From: a virus
Lineage: Duplodnaviria > Heunggongvirae > Uroviricota > Caudoviricetes
Direction: 5' to 3' (one strand)
DNA length: 64,000 nt
Virus record (IMG/VR): IMGVR_UViG_3300037321_000115
The position numbers and the translations under genes are program-made. Each line of letters begins with the position of its first letter. Position 1 is the stretch's first letter. Below the pieces are notes generated by a model. That model worked only from the letters and a program-made list of their open reading frames with translations, was not told where the DNA came from and searched no databases. Below, piece by piece: positions 31,108 through 54,326 of this stretch.

Positions 31108-31362
31108 TCAGTCCTTCTTTAAGGTTGGTGCGGCTCCGGTCAGTCGGAGATACGCTTGATAGGCCAGCACTTTGCGTGCGTATCTGCTGGCGACGAACTG
31201 GTCCCACGTGGTGGGCTCAGTGGTGTACACCTTGTGGTCGGTGCGTTTCATACGGGCCTCGACCCACTCAGCGGAGAGGAGCCTGAGTTCCTCGTCACTG
31301 GCCTGTCCACTGGCACGAAGCCAGTGGACAAACGTCGGCCTCTTGGGCTCAAAAGAGGACAT
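31108..31362 (-). CDS. Hypothetical protein
   Basis: Likely start MSSFEPKRP, overlapping the AAA stop by 14 nt. Confidence 0.5.
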   Translation of the reverse strand: MSSFEPKRPTFVHWLRASGQASDEELRLLSAEWVEARMKRTDHKVYTTEPTTWDQFVASRYARKVLAYQAYLRLTGAAPTLKKD

Positions 31363-32344
31363 CTTGGTGTGCCAATGCCCAGCGAGTAAAGGCCTGTGTG
31401 TTGGCCAGACTGGGTGTCTTGCGGACAGCATGGGAGATGCTAAGGACCGAGAACTCGGCAGGCATACGGCCGGTGTAGGTCACAAGACGTTCCAAGTTAG
31501 CCTCGGTGGCACGGTCAGCCAAGGCACCGGACAAGGCGTAGAGTGTGGCCGGGTCAGTCGGTACCTCTGCCGTATCGGGGTTGACGAGGATAGCATCGGG
31601 GTTGGGCAGCTTACGGTAGATACGCACAAACCCAACAAACTCAGCCGCTGCACCCTCACCAACAGCACCCTTGAAGCACTCATACTCAGCCTCGGCTGGC
31701 ACGTTGCCAAGCACTGCACTGACACCCTCGACCCATGACCGTGGTGTCGGGTTGACGTCACGCTGTGGGTCGAAGTCATGCAGCAAGTGAGGCCGGAACC
31801 GTGTGAAGGCGATGACCATGGGGTGTACGTCGTTGTCGATCATCCACTGGGTGCTGTCGTCGAGGTGTGTCTCGAACTCCAGCACTGTCTCACGGTTACG
31901 CAAGTGGCTCAACACACGGTTGGCACCAGCCCTGTCGGACTGCCTGTTACCCGTTGACACCACCGTCCACCCATTGGCCAAGGGCTTGCCGTGTAGGGTC
32001 CGAGCCTGCTGGATGTTGGCCAGTACCTTTTGTAGGTCGGCGTTGGCTTGGTTCCGATCATCGAACAGTAGGATACCACCGCGCTCGGTGCCGGCCTTGC
32101 CCTTGAGTGGGAACCATTCGGGCAGCTTGTAGCTGAAGCTGTCGCCGGCAGCGTCGGGGTAGGGTATCCCGAAGTCCTCGACCAGCATGGTCGGCATGTG
32201 CCGCTCCACGACAGGTAACCCCATAGCCTCGGCCACCTCGTGGACAATGGTGGTCTTACCACCGCCCGGAGGCCCCTCGATAGCTACGGAGCGACCGAGT
32301 GGGATGAGCGACTGGAGTGTGTCTTTTAGTAATGTAGCACGCAT
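31349..32344 (-). CDS. AAA+ ATPase (MoxR-like)
   Basis: Walker A EGPPGGGKT, Walker B variant LLFDDRNQA, sensor STGNR, PTPRSW; AGGAG RBS. Confidence 0.9.
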   Translation of the reverse strand: MRATLLKDTLQSLIPLGRSVAIEGPPGGGKTTIVHEVAEAMGLPVVERHMPTMLVEDFGIPYPDAAGDSFSYKLPEWFPLKGKAGTERGGILLFDDRNQANADLQKVLANIQQARTLHGKPLANGWTVVSTGNRQSDRAGANRVLSHLRNRETVLEFETHLDDSTQWMIDNDVHPMVIAFTRFRPHLLHDFDPQRDVNPTPRSWVEGVSAVLGNVPAEAEYECFKGAVGEGAAAEFVGFVRIYRKLPNPDAILVNPDTAEVPTDPATLYALSGALADRATEANLERLVTYTGRMPAEFSVLSISHAVRKTPSLANTQAFTRWALAHQDVLF

Positions 32345-32361
32345 TTGCGGCTCCTATTATA

Positions 32362-32424
32362 TGGCTTGTCTCATCAGTAGCATGGGAGCCACCCATGCTA
32401 GACGCCCCGTAGGGCGTTTCGATA
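32362..32424 (-). ncRNA. Type II hammerhead ribozyme with loop I / 3' tail pseudoknot
   Basis: The minus strand reads UAUC-GAAA-CGCCC-UACG-GGGCG-UC|UAGCAUGGG-UGGCU-CCCAUGCUA-CUGAUGA-GACA-AGCCA. This gives the full core (GAAA, GUC triplet, CUGAUGA), a 6-bp stem III, a 9-bp stem I, a short stem II (G-C, A-U) and loop UGGCU complementary to the downstream AGCCA. Confidence 0.88.
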
Positions 32425-33231
32425 TTACCCAACCCGCATGATCTGGTTCAAGGCGTTCCGCATCTGGGTGTGGTCCTCGAAATACTCATACGTCTCGATG
32501 TCGTAGCACGTCTCGTACTTGTAGACGGCCTCCCGCAGTGACCGCAGCTCAGCCTCCAGTGGTGCATGACTGCCCATACGACCAGCGATCTCGGCCCAAC
32601 CAGTCTCACCTTGGCGGAGGTACTTGACAGCCTCACTAGGTGTCCACGAGAACGAACTGCCAGACCAACGGGGGCTACGTGGACACAAGTGGAGACGAAT
32701 ACGTGTCTCCAGCCATAGCTTGAACGTGTAGTAGTTGGTGTCCTTGAGAGCCTGCTTTCCTTCCTTGCGGTTGAAGTACGGCACCTCGACGGGCTTGGAA
32801 CCATCGACAAGCGTCCAACCGGTCTCTGCTGGCTGGACCACGGCGAAGGACGGGGTGCTATAGTACCGACCACCCACTTCGGTGATGTAGCCCTTATCTG
32901 ACCAGTGAGTGTTCACATGGGGTCCGAGGACTGACCACATGACGCGGTTGGTCAGGGCAGAGGGGTAAGGGGTGAGGACAACAGGGGACAAGTCGTTGTC
33001 ACCATCAGCTTGGTAGGTGTAGCGGATAATATCCGTGTGGTATAACCGGACCAGTATATCACTGGTCGTTGGTTCCATCCGGATGGTCAGGTTTTCGTTA
33101 CTACGGCGAGCCAGTGGCCTTGTGTTCTGGTCAGATCGACCACGGATAGGCTTGGTGGAGTGGTACCGGAGCAGTGCTGTGTTGTAGCTGAACATACGGC
33201 AGGCTGGTAATTGGATGTTTGATCCGAACAT
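32425..33231 (-). CDS. Hypothetical early protein
   Basis: 268-aa ORF with AAGGAG RBS, coupled to the upstream gene. Confidence 0.75.
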   Translation of the reverse strand: MFGSNIQLPACRMFSYNTALLRYHSTKPIRGRSDQNTRPLARRSNENLTIRMEPTTSDILVRLYHTDIIRYTYQADGDNDLSPVVLTPYPSALTNRVMWSVLGPHVNTHWSDKGYITEVGGRYYSTPSFAVVQPAETGWTLVDGSKPVEVPYFNRKEGKQALKDTNYYTFKLWLETRIRLHLCPRSPRWSGSSFSWTPSEAVKYLRQGETGWAEIAGRMGSHAPLEAELRSLREAVYKYETCYDIETYEYFEDHTQMRNALNQIMRVG

Positions 33232-33989: not shown

Positions 33990-34495
33990 CAAGTATACAC
34001 TAGTAGGCGTAGATAAACTATCTATGCAACTATCTACGAAAAAGCGCTGTAAGTGTATGAAAACAAACAACTATCTAACTATCTACGTGAATTTCAGTAG
34101 AGGCCCCATCTTTTAGTGCAGGTGCGTGTATACTTGTGAATATATTCGCGCATGAAAGGGCTAATATATGAGTAGATAGATAGATAGTTAGATAGTTGAC
34201 CAAATGTATATATATACTAAACACGCTCTATCCCACTGGTTTTACACGCTTTTCTCCCCCATGGTACTACAACGTTACACAAATCCCGGTATACACGCAC
34301 CCTTAAAATGTAACGTTTCAGGCCCTAAAAACGTAGATAGTTTTTAGCAGAAATAGATAGTTGTTTGTTTTCAACTACTTAAAAATGTAACGTGTATACT
34401 ACCAGCTAAGTATACACGTATACTTTAACTATACACGTATACTAACGCACCCTAAGTTTACATGTATACTACGGGGGCGCGCGCGTGTATAGTTT
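33990..34495. repeat. AT-rich iteron-like region (candidate replication origin)
   Basis: Eight or more ACTATCTA/TAGATAG copies; perfect 18-bp inverted repeat (34060-34077 / 34354-34371); eight GTATAC palindromes; no credible ORF. Confidence 0.6.
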
Positions 34496-34545
34496 TGAGC
34501 TAAAGACCCCCGACGTATGCCGAGAGGAACGAGGTACAAGCAGAC

Positions 34546-34578
34546 AAAAGAAAACCCGCCTAGCTTTCGCCAGACGGG
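34546..34578 (-). terminator. Rho-independent terminator
   Basis: Minus strand CCCGTCTGGC-GAAA-GCTAGGCGGG-TTTTCTTTT. Confidence 0.85.
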
Positions 34579-34585
34579 TCGGTGG

Positions 34586-34774
34586 TTAGAGTGCCATGCC
34601 GATGAAGATCACGGCCACAGCAAAGAGCATGAAGGCGAGGGCAGCGCGGATGTTACCGCGTGTTGGTGGTTGTTCACGAGCTGCGAGGTACCGCTCCGCT
34701 TCCACCTGACCGATGCGGCTAACATAGCCGTCGTACTGCAGCTGCTGCAGCTTAATATCAATGCGTTTTGACAT
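34586..34774 (-). CDS. Small early protein with C-terminal TM helix
   Basis: CAGGAG RBS; hydrophobic C-terminus. Confidence 0.65.
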   Translation of the reverse strand: MSKRIDIKLQQLQYDGYVSRIGQVEAERYLAAREQPPTRGNIRAALAFMLFAVAVIFIGMAL

Positions 34775-34789
34775 AGTATTTTCTCCTGA

Positions 34790-34820
34790 TTAAAAGGTGG
34801 CCAGCCCTTGCGGGCTGGCC
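34790..34820 (-). terminator. Rho-independent terminator
   Basis: GGCCAGCCC-GCAA-GGGCTGGCC then ACCTTTT on the minus strand. Confidence 0.7.
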
Positions 34821-49248: not shown

Positions 49249-51644
49249 TGGCGTGGATCAATGCAGGTAGCGTAAGCGTCGGCCCGACTGGTCCAACAGG
49301 GGCACAGGGTATCCAAGGTATTGACGGTATCGACGGTATTGCTGGGCCAACGGGCCCTACCGGCGCTGACGGAACTCCCGGAGGTCCGACCGGACCCATT
49401 GGTGATTTAGGCCCTACCGGCCCAACGGGCCCTGCAGGCGCTGACGGCTCCGAAGGTACTGTAGGACCTACCGGCCCTCAGGGTGCTGACTCTACATTCG
49501 TTGGCCCGACCGGTCCGACCGGTCCGCAAGGTATTGACGGCCCTCAGGGTGCTGACTCTACAGTCGTTGGCCCAACAGGTCCTACCGGCGAAACGGGTCC
49601 GACTGGTGCTGACTCTACAGTCGCCGGTCCAACAGGTCCAAGTGGCACAGGCCCGACCGGCCCAACAGGACCTACCGGTGCTGACTCTACAGTCGTTGGT
49701 CCAACAGGACCTACTGGCGAAACGGGCCTCACCGGCCCTCAGGGTGCTGACTCTACAGTCGTTGGCCCGACAGGACCTACAGGCGAAACGGGCCTCACCG
49801 GCCCTACAGGCGCGGACTCTACAGTCGCTGGCCCAACAGGTCCTACCGGCGAAACGGGTCTCACTGGCCCTCAGGGTGCTGACTCTACAGTCGTTGGCCC
49901 AACAGGTCCTACAGGCGAAACGGGCCTCACCGGCCCTCAGGGTGCTGACTCTACAGTCGTTGGCCCAACAGGTCCGACCGGTCCGCAAGGTATTGACGGC
50001 ACCGCGGGCACGACTGGCCCCACAGGCCCGCAGGGTATTGGAGGTATTGACGGCACCGAGGGCCTGACCGGACCGACCGGCCCGCAGGGTGAGGACTCCA
50101 CAGTCGCTGGACCTACAGGCCCCACTGGTGGAGTGGCCGATATTGACACACACTTGAATACTTCCACGGCTGTAACCGGAGAGGTTTTGTCGTGGGACGG
50201 GGCGGACTACGATTGGATTGCCCCCGCTGGAGGCCCAACATTACAAGCAATCGCCTCTGGTACACTGCCAAATGGAGTGCCTGTAGTTATCAATCCAGAT
50301 GGTACTGTGAGTGCGGTTGGTCTTAGTTCTTCTGAAGCTGTCGTGTTCGAGAGTGCAAGTACCGACAACATCTCGGCCACCTTTGACAGCAACTCAAACA
50401 AAGTTGTCATTGCTTATAGAGACAATGGCAACTCCAGCTTCGGCACTGCCATTGTAGGAACTGTCAGTGGGACTTCAATCAGCTTCGGCACTCCTGTCGT
50501 GTTTGAAAGTGCATATACCGACAACATCTCGGCCACTTTTGATAGCAACTCAAACAAGGTCGTCATTGCTTATAGAGACTACCCCAACTCTCAATTCGGT
50601 ACTGCCGTTGTAGGGACTGTCAGTGGGACTTCAATCAGCTTCGGCACTCCTGTCGTGTTCGAGAGTGCAGCTACCACCAACATCACAATCACTTTTGACA
50701 GCAACTCAAACAAAGTCGTCATTGCTTATTCTGACGGTGGTAATTCCTACTTCGGCACTGCCATTGTAGGAACTGTCAGTGGGACTTCAATCAGCTTCGG
50801 CACTCCTGTCGTGTTCGAGAGTGCAAGTACCAACTACAGCTCAGCCACTTTTGACAGTTTCAACAACAAGGTCGTCATTGCTTATTCTTACGGTGGTAAT
50901 CCCTACTTCGGCACTGCCATTGTAGGAACTGTCAGTGGGACTTCAATCAGCTTCGGCACTACTGTCGTGTTCGAGAGTGCAAATACCAGCTACATCTCAG
51001 CCACTTTTGACAGCAACTCAAGCAAGGTCGTCATTGCTTATAGAGACTACCCCAATTCCAACTTCGGCACTGCCATTGTAGGTACTGTCAGTGGGACTTC
51101 AATCAGCTTCGGCACTCCTGTCGTGTTCGAGAGTGCAAATACCACCAACATCACAATCACTTTTGACAGCAACTCAAACAAAGTCGTCATTGCTTATAGA
51201 GACGCTGGCAATTCCAGCTTCGGCACTGCCGTTGTAGGGACTGTCAGCGGAACCTCAATCAGCTTTGGTACTGCTGTCGTGTTTGAAAGTGCAAGTACTG
51301 ACTTTATCTCGGCCACTTTTGATAGCAACTCAAACAAAGTTGTCATTGCTTATAGAGACGTGGGCAATTCCAGCTTCGGCACTGCTATTTCAATTGATAG
51401 CCTAGACGCTGTAGGAACAAATCTGACCACTGAGAACTACATTGGCTTTTCTGCTGGAGCCTACGCTGATGCTGCCACAGCTACTGTGCAAATTGGCGGT
51501 TCGGTAAATGAGTCACAGTCAGGCTTGGTAACGGCGCGGCGATACTTCGTGACCGGTACCGGCGCCTTAGCTACAACTCCGAGCATCCCAAATGTCTACG
51601 CAGGTCTAGCTGTAGCCACCACTAAAATCATTATAAAAGGATAA
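49248..51644 (+). CDS. Collagen-like fibre with C-terminal 52-aa repeat (beta-propeller-like) head
   Basis: About 290 aa of [10 protein letters not shown] collagen repeats, then seven 52-aa repeats. Confidence 0.85.
49280..50130 (+). repeat. Collagen G-X-Y coding repeats with recurrent GGTGCTGACTCTACAGTC units
   Basis: Eight ADST plus one EDST interruptions with near-identical DNA. Confidence 0.9.
50340..51390 (+). repeat. 156-nt coding tandem repeat, about 6.7 copies
   Basis: Units start at 50340, 50496, 50652, 50808, 50964, 51120 and 51276 (VVFESA...FGTP). Confidence 0.95.
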
Positions 51645-51650
51645 ACACAA

Positions 51651-51908
51651 ATGAAAACGCTCACCAAAGACAACCTGTCCCTCTACCTATTTGAAGATGA
51701 CAAACCACTGCTGATCGAAGCTGACAAAATTACTGTCAGTGATCCTGCCGAGTTTATCATCGGTGACTGCAGCAGCGAGAACACAGTCTTACATGAAGGT
51801 GTCACTGGCCCGGAAGATTGGACAGGTGGCAAGTACTTTTATGACGGTACAGACTTTACGCTGAATCCCAACTGGACTGATCCAGACACAGTAAATTATC
51901 TTTTGTAA
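51651..51908 (+). CDS. Small acidic protein following the fibre (possible fibre chaperone)
   Basis: PAEFIIGDCSSENTVLHEGVTGPEDWTGGKYFYDGTDFTLNPNW; its last codons may cross the compositional junction. Confidence 0.7.
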   Translation: MKTLTKDNLSLYLFEDDKPLLIEADKITVSDPAEFIIGDCSSENTVLHEGVTGPEDWTGGKYFYDGTDFTLNPNWTDPDTVNYLL

Positions 51909-52183
51909 TCTTGCCACTGAAGTAGATTTTACACATTACTACAAACCTATTTAATAAACAGTATTGTATTTGCCACAACACAAATGTTGTTTTTAAATTA
52001 TGTACATGAGAATGGCGTAGCATCAGAAAGCACGCCATTCAATAAATCACGTATCTTTAATATGCGAACAGGCAATACAAGAAGTTTCATGGATGTTGCA
52101 CTTCTGCAAAACTTAACATTATTACTTTTCCTGAATATCTATATAAACATACATATGTGCTGGATAACAGATATCCTATTTGT

Positions 52184-52191
52184 TATAAATA
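52184..52191 (+). promoter_or_regulatory. T4-type late promoter
   Basis: TATAAATA, about 30 nt upstream of the ATG at 52223. Confidence 0.8.
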
Positions 52192-52222
52192 GGACTAACA
52201 ACAAGAGTAGAAGGTTTCCACA

Positions 52223-52561
52223 ATGACAACAAGAGCAAATCTCTATGTAGATCAGGGAATTGATTTTCTACTTCGTCTTCAGATTACACTAGATGAAAAC
52301 ACCACAGAAGGTTTGACTTTCTACTCTAGTGCAAGAAAAGTTTATTCATCTGCTAAGTTGTTTGATGCCTCAGTTACAATAGAAGAAAATGGCGGTGGTG
52401 AAACAGTAGATTTGGACATTTTCATTGGAGCTGAAAAGACCGCCGATCTAGAACCTGGTAAATACCAGTACGATGTAATTTATACTAATCAAAATGGAAA
52501 TGTGAAAAAGTTACTGGAAGGCACTGTCCACATAATCCCAACTATCACAAGACCGGAGTAG
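52223..52561 (+). CDS. T4-like phage small virion structural protein
   Basis: ANLYVDQGIDF...GKYQYDV...KLLEGTVHIIPTITR pattern typical of T4-like myoviruses. Confidence 0.7.
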   Translation: MTTRANLYVDQGIDFLLRLQITLDENTTEGLTFYSSARKVYSSAKLFDASVTIEENGGGETVDLDIFIGAEKTADLEPGKYQYDVIYTNQNGNVKKLLEGTVHIIPTITRPE

Positions 52562-52565
52562 GAGA

Positions 52566-54326
52566 TTGAGTGATTTAATCGTAATACCTGGCAGCACCGT
52601 AGGTTCTATAGTAGCAGTAAATACTGTAGGAAATAGAGGGTACACAGGTTCACAGGGCACCAGTGGCTTTGACGGATCTAAAGGCAACAGTGGCTTTTCT
52701 GGTAGTAGAGGTTTTACTGGATCTCAAGGTGTAGCGGGCGCATATGCTGCTGTTGGCTATACAGGCTCAAAAGGCGAGATAGGCTTCACAGGTTCTCTCG
52801 GCTTTACTGGATCACTCGGCTTTGCAGGATCCCAAGGCGAACTAGGTTACACTGGTTCGTTAGGCTTTTCTGGGTCCCAAGGTATTCAAGGTGTAGCAGG
52901 AGAGGCCGCCTCTGTTGGCTTTACAGGCTCAAAAGGCGAGACTGGCTTCACAGGTCCTCTCGGCTTCACAGGTTCGAAAGGCGATATAGGTTCTCGGGGA
53001 TACGCGGGTTCGCAGGGCAGTATAGGTTTCGCAGGATCACAGGGCAGTATAGGTTTCGCAGGATCACAGGGCTTGATAGGCTTTTCTGGGTCGCGCGGCC
53101 AACTAGGGTTTACTGGGTCGATTGGTTACACTGGGTCGCTAGGATTTACTGGTAGCCAAGGTACAACTGGTTTTGACGGATCCAAAGGCGATTTGGGTTA
53201 TGCTGGTTCCCAAGGGGCAGGATTTACTGGTAGCCAAGGTACAACTGGTTTTGATGGATCCAAAGGCGATTTGGGTTATGTCGGTTCGATTGGTTACACT
53301 GGGTCGCTAGGATTTACTGGTAGCCAAGGTACAACTGGTTTTGATGGATCCAAAGGCGATTTGGGTTATGTCGGTTCGATTGGTTATGTCGGTAGCCAAG
53401 GTACAACTGGTTTTGATGGATCCAAAGGCGATTTGGGTTATGCTGGTTCAATTGGTTATGTCGGAAGTCAAGGTACAACTGGTTATTCTGGATCCAAAGG
53501 CGATGTAGGATACACTGGATCTTTTGGATTTACTGGCAGTAAAGGTGTTTTGGGTTATTCTGGATCGCAAGGTGATGTAGGATATGCTGGGTCCAAAGGC
53601 GATTTGGGTTATGCTGGTTCAATTGGTTACACCGGGTCACTAGGATTTACTGGTTTTGTTGGATCCAAAGGTGACCTAGGCTATGCAGGTTCTATTGGTT
53701 ACACTGGCAGTCGAGGTGATACTGGCTTTGTTGGTTCCAAGGGAGACTTTGGTTTTACTGGAAGTCAAGGCACAGCTGGGTTTACCGGATCCAAAGGTGA
53801 CGTAGGATTTACCGGATCTAAAGGTGACACTGGCTATGTCGGCTCACAAGGAGCAGGATTTACCGGATCCAAAGGTGACTTAGGATTTACCGGAAGTCAA
53901 GGTCCTGCTGCAGAAGGTTCAAGTATTACTATAACCAACGAAACTACTGATGCAACCAGATTTTTAGGTTTCGTTGGATCTAGTAGCGGAGTTGCGCAGG
54001 TAATATACGTTGCTTCAGATAAATTGTATTTTAATCCTTCAACTGGCACATTAAATGCTACTGAATTTAACTCTCTATCTGATGCAAATTATAAAGAGAA
54101 TTTCAATTCTGATATAGACAGTCTTGGTATTATTAATCAAATTGGCACATACTCCTTTAATTGGAAAGACAACAAGAAGAAAAGCTACGGTGTTATTGCA
54201 CAAGAACTAGAGCAGATTGTGCCAGATTTAGTAACAACAAACGAAAATGGTGTCAAGTCGGTCTCTTACATACCTCTGATTGCAATATTGGTTGACGCGG
54301 TAAGGAAATTGAGCAAGGATAAATAA
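52566..54326 (+). CDS. Collagen-like fibre (GFTGS repeats) with C-terminal S74-type intramolecular chaperone
   Basis: About 420 aa of G-X-Y repeats; SDANYKEN, YSFNWK and YGVIAQELEQIVPDLV motifs. Confidence 0.85.
   Translation: MSDLIVIPGSTVGSIVAVNTVGNRGYTGSQGTSGFDGSKGNSGFSGSRGFTGSQGVAGAYAAVGYTGSKGEIGFTGSLGFTGSLGFAGSQGELGYTGSLGFSGSQGIQGVAGEAASVGFTGSKGETGFTGPLGFTGSKGDIGSRGYAGSQGSIGFAGSQGSIGFAGSQGLIGFSGSRGQLGFTGSIGYTGSLGFTGSQGTTGFDGSKGDLGYAGSQGAGFTGSQGTTGFDGSKGDLGYVGSIGYTGSLGFTGSQGTTGFDGSKGDLGYVGSIGYVGSQGTTGFDGSKGDLGYAGSIGYVGSQGTTGYSGSKGDVGYTGSFGFTGSKGVLGYSGSQGDVGYAGSKGDLGYAGSIGYTGSLGFTGFVGSKGDLGYAGSIGYTGSRGDTGFVGSKGDFGFTGSQGTAGFTGSKGDVGFTGSKGDTGYVGSQGAGFTGSKGDLGFTGSQGPAAEGSSITITNETTDATRFLGFVGSSSGVAQVIYVASDKLYFNPSTGTLNATEFNSLSDANYKENFNSDIDSLGIINQIGTYSFNWKDNKKKSYGVIAQELEQIVPDLVTTNENGVKSVSYIPLIAILVDAVRKLSKDK

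Follow-up and report, generated by a model that had tools for sequence, protein, structure and literature searches.

A complete type II hammerhead ribozyme at a gene junction in the replication block of an uncultured tailed phage

A gene junction in a leftward replication block

The 64-kb stretch of DNA considered here (hereafter the window, taken at its full length) comes from an uncultured tailed phage with a GC content of ~58%. On its minus strand, the gene of a 268-aa protein (32425..33231 in the list of open reading frames) is followed by that of an AAA+ ATPase of 331 aa (31349..32344), which matches Pfam AAA_5 (3.7e-6) and the PHROG 1297 ATPase (1.4e-68). Between the stop codon of the former (TAA, 32427-32425) and the start codon of the latter (ATG, 32344-32342) there is a gap of 80 nt, 32424-32345 on the minus strand. 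It contains a complete type II hammerhead ribozyme (Rfam RF02276; 32359..32424, minus strand), which abuts the stop codon of the upstream gene. The 268-aa protein matched no Pfam or PHROG family; homologues of it, with 32-78% identity, sit 5' of the ribozyme in related contigs.

On the 3' side of the ATPase gene come the genes of a DUF3150-like protein and then of a metallopeptidase-vWA protein, while DNA polymerase, helicase and primase are encoded further along the same (minus) strand. The opposite strand carries, from ~36.2 kb, the genes of terminase, portal/adaptor and tail fibres. This gene content places the ribozyme inside a leftward replication-gene block diverging from a rightward structural block, and it would be reasonable to call the leftward block early. 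Three terminator-like hairpins with T-rich tails stand in series at 34390-34820 (minus strand), upstream of the gene block of the ribozyme, and border an ORF-poor stretch of lower GC content. These hairpins suggest that the transcription unit of the ribozyme begins downstream of ~34.4 kb; no promoter could be assigned to it.

The ATPase is ~30% identical to gp24 of phage N4 and to its relatives in cultured phages. The phage was at first labelled N4-like on account of this match, and the label was dropped because the identity is so low and because the structural genes carry no N4-specific signal. A megablast search with 6 kb around the site gave no match among cultured phages, and a related record (G001), an uninformative 12-kb fragment, is devoid of a hammerhead. 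Towards the other end of the window, the GC content drops from ~0.60 to ~0.38 over ~4 kb (50000-54000) and stays low until the window ends; its final 12 kb have the appearance of AT-rich sequence from another phage, fused to the GC-rich one that bears the ribozyme.

When the whole 64-kb window was searched with cmscan against 4227 Rfam families, a single match was obtained, to RF02276 (Hammerhead_II), with 41.1 bits against a cut-off (gathering score) of 37, an E-value of 6e-5 and all model positions (1-66 of 66) covered; a permissive search, with E up to 1, left this result unchanged. An earlier note, made from the letters of the sequence, had proposed a pseudoknotted type II hammerhead at 32362-32424 and had suggested a search with the Infernal and Rfam type II models as a check. 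The match, which lies above the gathering score and takes in 32359-32424 in full, bears the proposal out. Furthermore, a custom model run with filters off gives 78.7 bits to the ribozyme at 32359-32424 and at most 10.5 bits to any position in the rest of the window, so that neither Rfam at E up to 1 nor this model finds a second hammerhead in the 64 kb.

Read 5' to 3', the gap is made up of UAUC, GAAA, CGCCC-UACG-GGGCG (stem III), UC with C17 at 32401, stem I, CUGAUGA, GAC, a linker A, AGCCA, 6 nt, AGGAG, another 6 nt and AUG. On the minus strand, as all the features that follow, the 5' strand of stem II is AUC (32421..32423) and its 3' strand is GAC (32368..32370). C32421-G32370 and U32422-A32369 pair, while A32423.C32368 is mismatched. 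The core GAAA, that is G12, A13, A14 and A15.1 (32417..32420), is the same in 10 of 10 orthologues. Stem III comprises 6 bp (A15.1-U16.1 and CGCCC/GGGCG; 32417-32412 with 32407-32402) closed by a UACG tetraloop (32411-32408). Stem I comprises 9 bp (32400-32392 with 32386-32378) around loop I, UGGCU (32391-32387), its letters being UAGCAUGGG-UGGCU-CCCAUGCUA (32400-32378). These two stems are recovered by the RNAfold minimum free energy (MFE) structure in an 89-nt as well as in a 261-nt context. The second part of the core, C3-A9, is CUGAUGA (32371..32377), as read in the sequence and in the alignment of orthologues.

The 3' tail AGCCA (32362..32366) is the partner of loop I (32387-32391) in a pseudoknot of five Watson-Crick pairs. 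This pseudoknot constitutes the tertiary contact between stems I and II, 5 bp long where at least 4 bp were required. The predicted scissile bond lies 3' of C17 (32401) and 5' of U1.1 (32400), as placed relative to the core in the Rfam alignment. Beyond the tail, the Shine-Dalgarno sequence AGGAG (32351..32355), 6 nt 5' of the AUG, is unpaired in the centroid fold. The type II permutation is present, with stems I and III capped by loops and stem II open. Moreover, all core positions carry the consensus: C3 U4 G5 A6 N7 G8 A9, G12 A13 A14, A15.1-U16.1, H17 and the G10.1-C11.1 pair, the last being G32370-C32421 and U16.1 being U32402.

The anatomy described in the earlier note is found again in this reading: the GAAA, the stem III closed by UACG, the GUC triplet, the 9-bp stem I, the CUGAUGA and the short stem II all stand where it had put them, and its complementarity between loop I and the AGCCA tail corresponds to the five pairs of the pseudoknot. 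The cleavage that it had predicted between 32401 and 32400 agrees with the position of the core in the Rfam alignment, and the ribosome-binding site and start codon that it had seen 3' of the ribozyme are read at 32355-32351 and 32344-32342.

The third pair of stem II is where the copy in the window departs from its class: it is A.C here and G-C in 140 of 148 class members. Because of the A32423.C32368 mismatch, stem II has 2 bp in this copy, a length that falls inside the range published for type II hammerheads (PMC3088659). By every feature of RF02276 that a sequence can be tested for, the ribozyme is a textbook member of the family.

Conservation of the fold at the junction and beyond it

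A search of IMG/VR with the ATPase gave 80 loci, with identities of 71-99%, and a hammerhead lies between the 268-aa homologue and the ATPase in 11 of the 20 loci where the ATPase is at least 80% identical. Ten distinct orthologous copies, from loci with AAA proteins 80-99% identical, were aligned with MAFFT and provided with a hand-written structure that includes the pseudoknot. Standard pairs occupy 99.2% of the 242 pair cells of these ten orthologues, a figure that falls to 32-46% if the partners are displaced by 1-3 columns. Two-sided, i.e., compensatory, changes occur in 16 of the 25 pairs, and none of 500 shuffles matched any of the observed measures.

Stem III shows compensatory changes in 6 of 8 counted pairs, with 100% of its cells paired; among the ten orthologues its length goes from 6 to ~12 bp and its sequence is variable, with the pairing always kept. 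Stem I shows such changes in 8 of 9 pairs, again with 100% of the cells paired, and two fully compensated pair differences in this stem already separate the window from the locus (L003) whose ATPase is 92% identical. The pseudoknot changes in the same manner, since GGC/GCC has become GGU/ACC in one orthologue (L011), a compensatory replacement of C-G by U-A. The core is invariant among the orthologues except for position 7 (C in L001) and position 17 (A in L013), which are the two hammerhead positions known to tolerate such changes. The cleavage triplet is GUC in nine orthologues and GUA in one, both being permitted by the NUH rule.

So many compensatory changes over a substantial divergence indicate that selection acts on the ribozyme fold. 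The earlier note had turned to covariation among related phages as a check on its reading, which was to be given up if the positions of core and pseudoknot were not conserved; the ten orthologues keep both.

These data also bear on whether the site needs to be a ribozyme at all. Two stable hairpins are present, and the mismatch in stem II might be taken as a sign of decay, as would be expected if GC-rich, non-catalytic hairpins, serving as a terminator, an attenuator, an RNase III site or a protein-binding site, were accompanied by a hammerhead core that is a mere relic. We regard this as extremely improbable. No U-run follows either of the hairpins and a terminator scan makes no call at the site, by which a terminator is ruled out. 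Furthermore, the single-stranded core (CUGAUGA, GAAA and C17) is conserved together with the pseudoknot, which a function of the hairpins alone would not need, and this contradicts a non-catalytic reading.

The design extends well beyond the junction. An exact-pattern scan of IMG/VR for CTGATGAGNCAAGCCA gave at least 119 stretches, and a covariance model without pseudoknot information, derived from the ten orthologues, gave 177 matches in 84 loci. In the 148 distinct best matches 95.2% of the cells are paired and all five pseudoknot pairs change on both sides, although the model contained no pseudoknot. Every helix covaries, among the ten orthologues as in these 148 copies; in stem II, the middle pair takes all four Watson-Crick forms across this class (UA in 74 copies, CG in 41, GC in 21 and AU in 11).

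Some contigs hold dense arrays: six of those in IMG/VR (L152, L173, L184, L126, L137 and L188) each have ~8-11 pseudoknotted type II hammerheads per ~10 kb, roughly one ribozyme per gene junction. At least seven unannotated type II copies lie among the small genes of a 5-kb block in Streptomyces phage Thestral (L201; NC_054670.1, 47238-52299), and three unannotated copies stand beside a gene of Cro/CI type in Dulem virus 39 (L200), which derives from a metagenome. The same pseudoknotted design abounds in viral metagenome contigs, and cultured Streptomyces phages have it as well.

A probable role in message processing, and the mobility of the ribozyme

We consider it likely that the element is a functional type II hammerhead which self-cleaves the leftward polycistronic RNA and uncouples the downstream from the upstream message; the long replication-gene transcript would probably be cut by it before the AAA gene. 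Members of the class that have been tested lead one to expect self-cleavage on the 3' side of C32401. In vitro, a stem II of 1 bp is enough for fast cleavage by pseudoknotted type II hammerheads, and polycistronic RNAs are cut by hammerheads of prophages both in vitro and in E. coli (Perreault et al., 2011; PMC3088659). Likewise, three type II hammerheads located near phage-like genes of Desulfovibrio vulgaris cleave in vivo, as detected by cyPhyRNA-seq (PMC8782182). The copy in the window may be slower than its relatives, due to the A.C mismatch in stem II.

According to this anatomy, the ribozyme would be part of the polycistronic transcript that runs leftward through the replication-gene block, loop I and the 3' tail would hold stems I and II together by their pseudoknot, and the folded RNA would cut its own backbone between C32401 and U32400. 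The hairpin of stem III would form the end of the upstream product, which would extend 24 nt beyond the stop codon of the 268-aa gene and carry a 2',3'-cyclic phosphate. The downstream product would bear a 5'-hydroxyl, its first nucleotide being already paired in the 9-bp stem I, and its 56-nt leader would carry the unpaired AGGAG, ahead of the AAA ATPase, DUF3150-like and peptidase-vWA genes. A hairpin would cap each of the two new ends, which would offer neither the 5'-monophosphate nor the free 3'-OH preferred by bacterial decay enzymes.

We infer that cleavage would take place in the infected cell, and what is generally known of bacterial RNA decay and of synthetic ribozyme insulators would point to an uncoupled stability and translation of the downstream message. 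A role in the processing or stabilisation of messages is the standard hypothesis for phage hammerheads and fits the anatomy found here (PMC3088659, PMC6765202); reviews still call the role of bacterial and phage ribozymes of such kind unproven (PMC6765202).

The placement of the wider class with respect to genes is remarkably uniform. An ORF of at least 50 codons on the same strand ends near the ribozyme in 138 of 147 evaluable copies. The ribozyme follows the stop codon at a median distance of 2 nt in the class and at 1 nt in the window, where the earlier note had already seen the ribozyme start right after the stop; in 111 of the 147 copies ribozyme and stop codon overlap or are at most 5 nt apart, as compared with 8% of random positions in the same loci. 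On the other side, an ORF starts 3' of the pseudoknot in 138 of 145 copies, at a median of 19 nt (17 nt in the window), whereas 23% of random positions in the same loci pass a comparable ORF-start criterion. With its 1 nt and 17 nt, the window shows the spacing usual for the class.

Such proximity to the stop codon, in the window and in those 111 copies, would also be in line with cleavage being conditional, gated by translation of the upstream gene, by Mg2+ or by another signal, which we judge quite unlikely. A ribosome terminating at the stop codon of the 268-aa gene would cover the 5' strand of stem II, the GAAA and part of stem III, and the weak 2-bp stem II, with its A.C mismatch, would make the copy in the window especially sensitive; regulated cleavage has been raised for slower phage variants by Perreault et al. 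(PMC3088659). Nevertheless, the tight spacing may be mere compaction of the phage genome, and the 66 nt are those of a minimal hammerhead, with no ligand-binding or extra domain. A candidate switch was also considered: in the 261-nt MFE fold, the core UGAUGAG (32370-32376) forms a competing helix with CUCAUC (32297-32303, minus strand; AAA codons 13-15). This helix was rejected as probably due to chance, since the hexamer is missing from 9 of 9 other ribozyme-bearing relatives and the pairing is not conserved.

A more far-reaching proposal would see in the same order of elements (stop codon, ribozyme after ~2 nt, ribosome-binding site ~10 nt after the pseudoknot) a dedicated gene-junction device and not compaction, the rate of cleavage reporting upstream translation. 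We put it forward tentatively and hold it to be rather doubtful. Terminating ribosomes could briefly mask the 5' half of the ribozyme, and the retained stem I and pseudoknot could serve as a protective, insulating 5' cap, a natural counterpart of synthetic insulators. If this were true, uncoupling would matter at the AAA junction, at which two deep clades have retained the ribozyme.

Indeed, the phylogenetic distribution at this junction extends further than the orthologues aligned above. Seven further contigs, found by the DNA pattern only, have a ribozyme directly 5' of an ATPase ~68% identical to that of the window, and four of the seven keep upstream a homologue of the 268-aa protein (32-40% identical). 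In a maximum-likelihood tree of 68 ATPases, the junctions with a ribozyme fall in two well-supported clades, comprising 10 of 16 rows in one and 7 of 7 in the other. The sub-clade of the window itself has the ribozyme in 5 of 5 rows. It is absent from the junction in 6 of the 16 closest AAA lineages and in the largest sister clade (0 of 37 rows). The tree needs five gains or losses, of which at least four are forced by well-supported branches.

Among cultured phages with a homologous ATPase, N4, Erwinia phage S6 and Vibrio phage 1.025.O have no hammerhead within 4 kb of it, by which a hammerhead conserved before this gene in cultured N4-like phages is ruled out. A degraded remnant before the AAA gene of one relative (L007) was likewise considered and set aside, as the custom model has no match there at E < 1e-4 (same contig, L149). 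The ribozyme is dispensable at the 268-aa/AAA junction.

Copies are also found elsewhere in the same gene block. One relative (L009) has three copies upstream and none directly before the AAA gene, and a second hammerhead stands just 5' of the 268-aa homologue in four contigs (L001:2014-2084, L019:2015-2088, L150:11672-11738 and L087:2854-2927). At the equivalent upstream junction of the window the two ORFs overlap at 33231, with no ribozyme between them. Identical or near-identical copies occur at two junctions in L112 (5341-5405 and 5834-5898) and in L197 (4678-4750 and 5065-5137), which suggests that the cassette was recently duplicated, or copied by gene conversion, inside one genome; such copies stand at different junctions in L178 as well. 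Over short distances the ribozyme is inherited stably, whereas gains, losses or moves occur over longer ones.

This behaviour would also be expected of an active yet selfish or neutral cassette, spreading between operon gaps by duplication, recombination or gene conversion, whose cleavage is tolerated. The patchy distribution, with at least four to five gains or losses at one junction, would agree with it, as would the copies that L009, L001 and L019 have at other junctions, those repeated within L112, L197 and L178, and the contigs with eight or more copies. On the other hand, many compensatory changes have preserved the helices of the ribozyme wherever it occurs, its placement is highly non-random (co-directional, just after a stop codon and just before a ribosome-binding site), and all five members of the sub-clade of the window keep it. 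We therefore think that a selfish or neutral cassette is unlikely, bearing in mind that a selfish element, too, would be expected to be under selection for self-cleavage, which makes it hard to tell from a processing role by sequence alone.

By itself the finding is of little weight: one more well-supported type II hammerhead joins the thousands that are already known, and the usual intergenic context in phages is confirmed. The class to which the ribozyme of the window belongs, as an ordinary case, was described in 2011 and is very common between phage genes. Its value lies rather in a clean comparative case, where the same 268-aa/AAA junction occurs with and without the ribozyme in close relatives, and with it in a second deep clade. 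Such junctions constitute natural matched pairs for the effect of a ribozyme on the expression of neighbouring genes, a question that is still open according to reviews (PMC6765202). Furthermore, cultured Streptomyces phages with many copies, such as Thestral, offer a practical experimental system.

Comparison with known systems

The type II hammerheads, their pseudoknot, their placement between phage genes and the idea that they process mRNA were published by Perreault et al. (2011; PMC3088659). The ribozyme of the window shares with the RF02276 class the core, the permuted topology and the pseudoknot, UGGCU with AGCCA being the family consensus, as well as the context between co-directional phage genes. 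The sole structural difference is the A.C at the third stem II pair of this copy. The type II hammerheads of D. vulgaris belong to the same Rfam family and are also found near phage-like genes, in a different organism and at different loci (PMC8782182).

A second comparison is with clustered hammerheads, which flank genes in prophages, e.g., in Azorhizobium and at the ardA locus of Agrobacterium (PMC3088659). For these clusters, as for the dense viral arrays, the proposed role is the same as here: the conversion of long phage transcripts into gene-length messages. The relatives of the phage of the window, with 2-3 copies in the same gene block, resemble this clustered arrangement. In the 64-kb window there is one copy, and not the two or more ribozymes that would bracket a gene; the operon would accordingly be split once, with no single-gene message excised.

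Finally, two systems outside the family work in an analogous manner. RNase III sites in early mRNAs of T7 type need the host enzyme and leave a 5'-phosphate and a 3'-OH, and RiboJ is a synthetic insulator built on an engineered type III hammerhead. With both, the ribozyme of the window would have in common an intergenic cut, hairpin-capped ends and a downstream expression that is independent of the upstream RNA, a likeness in the way of working and not in family membership.
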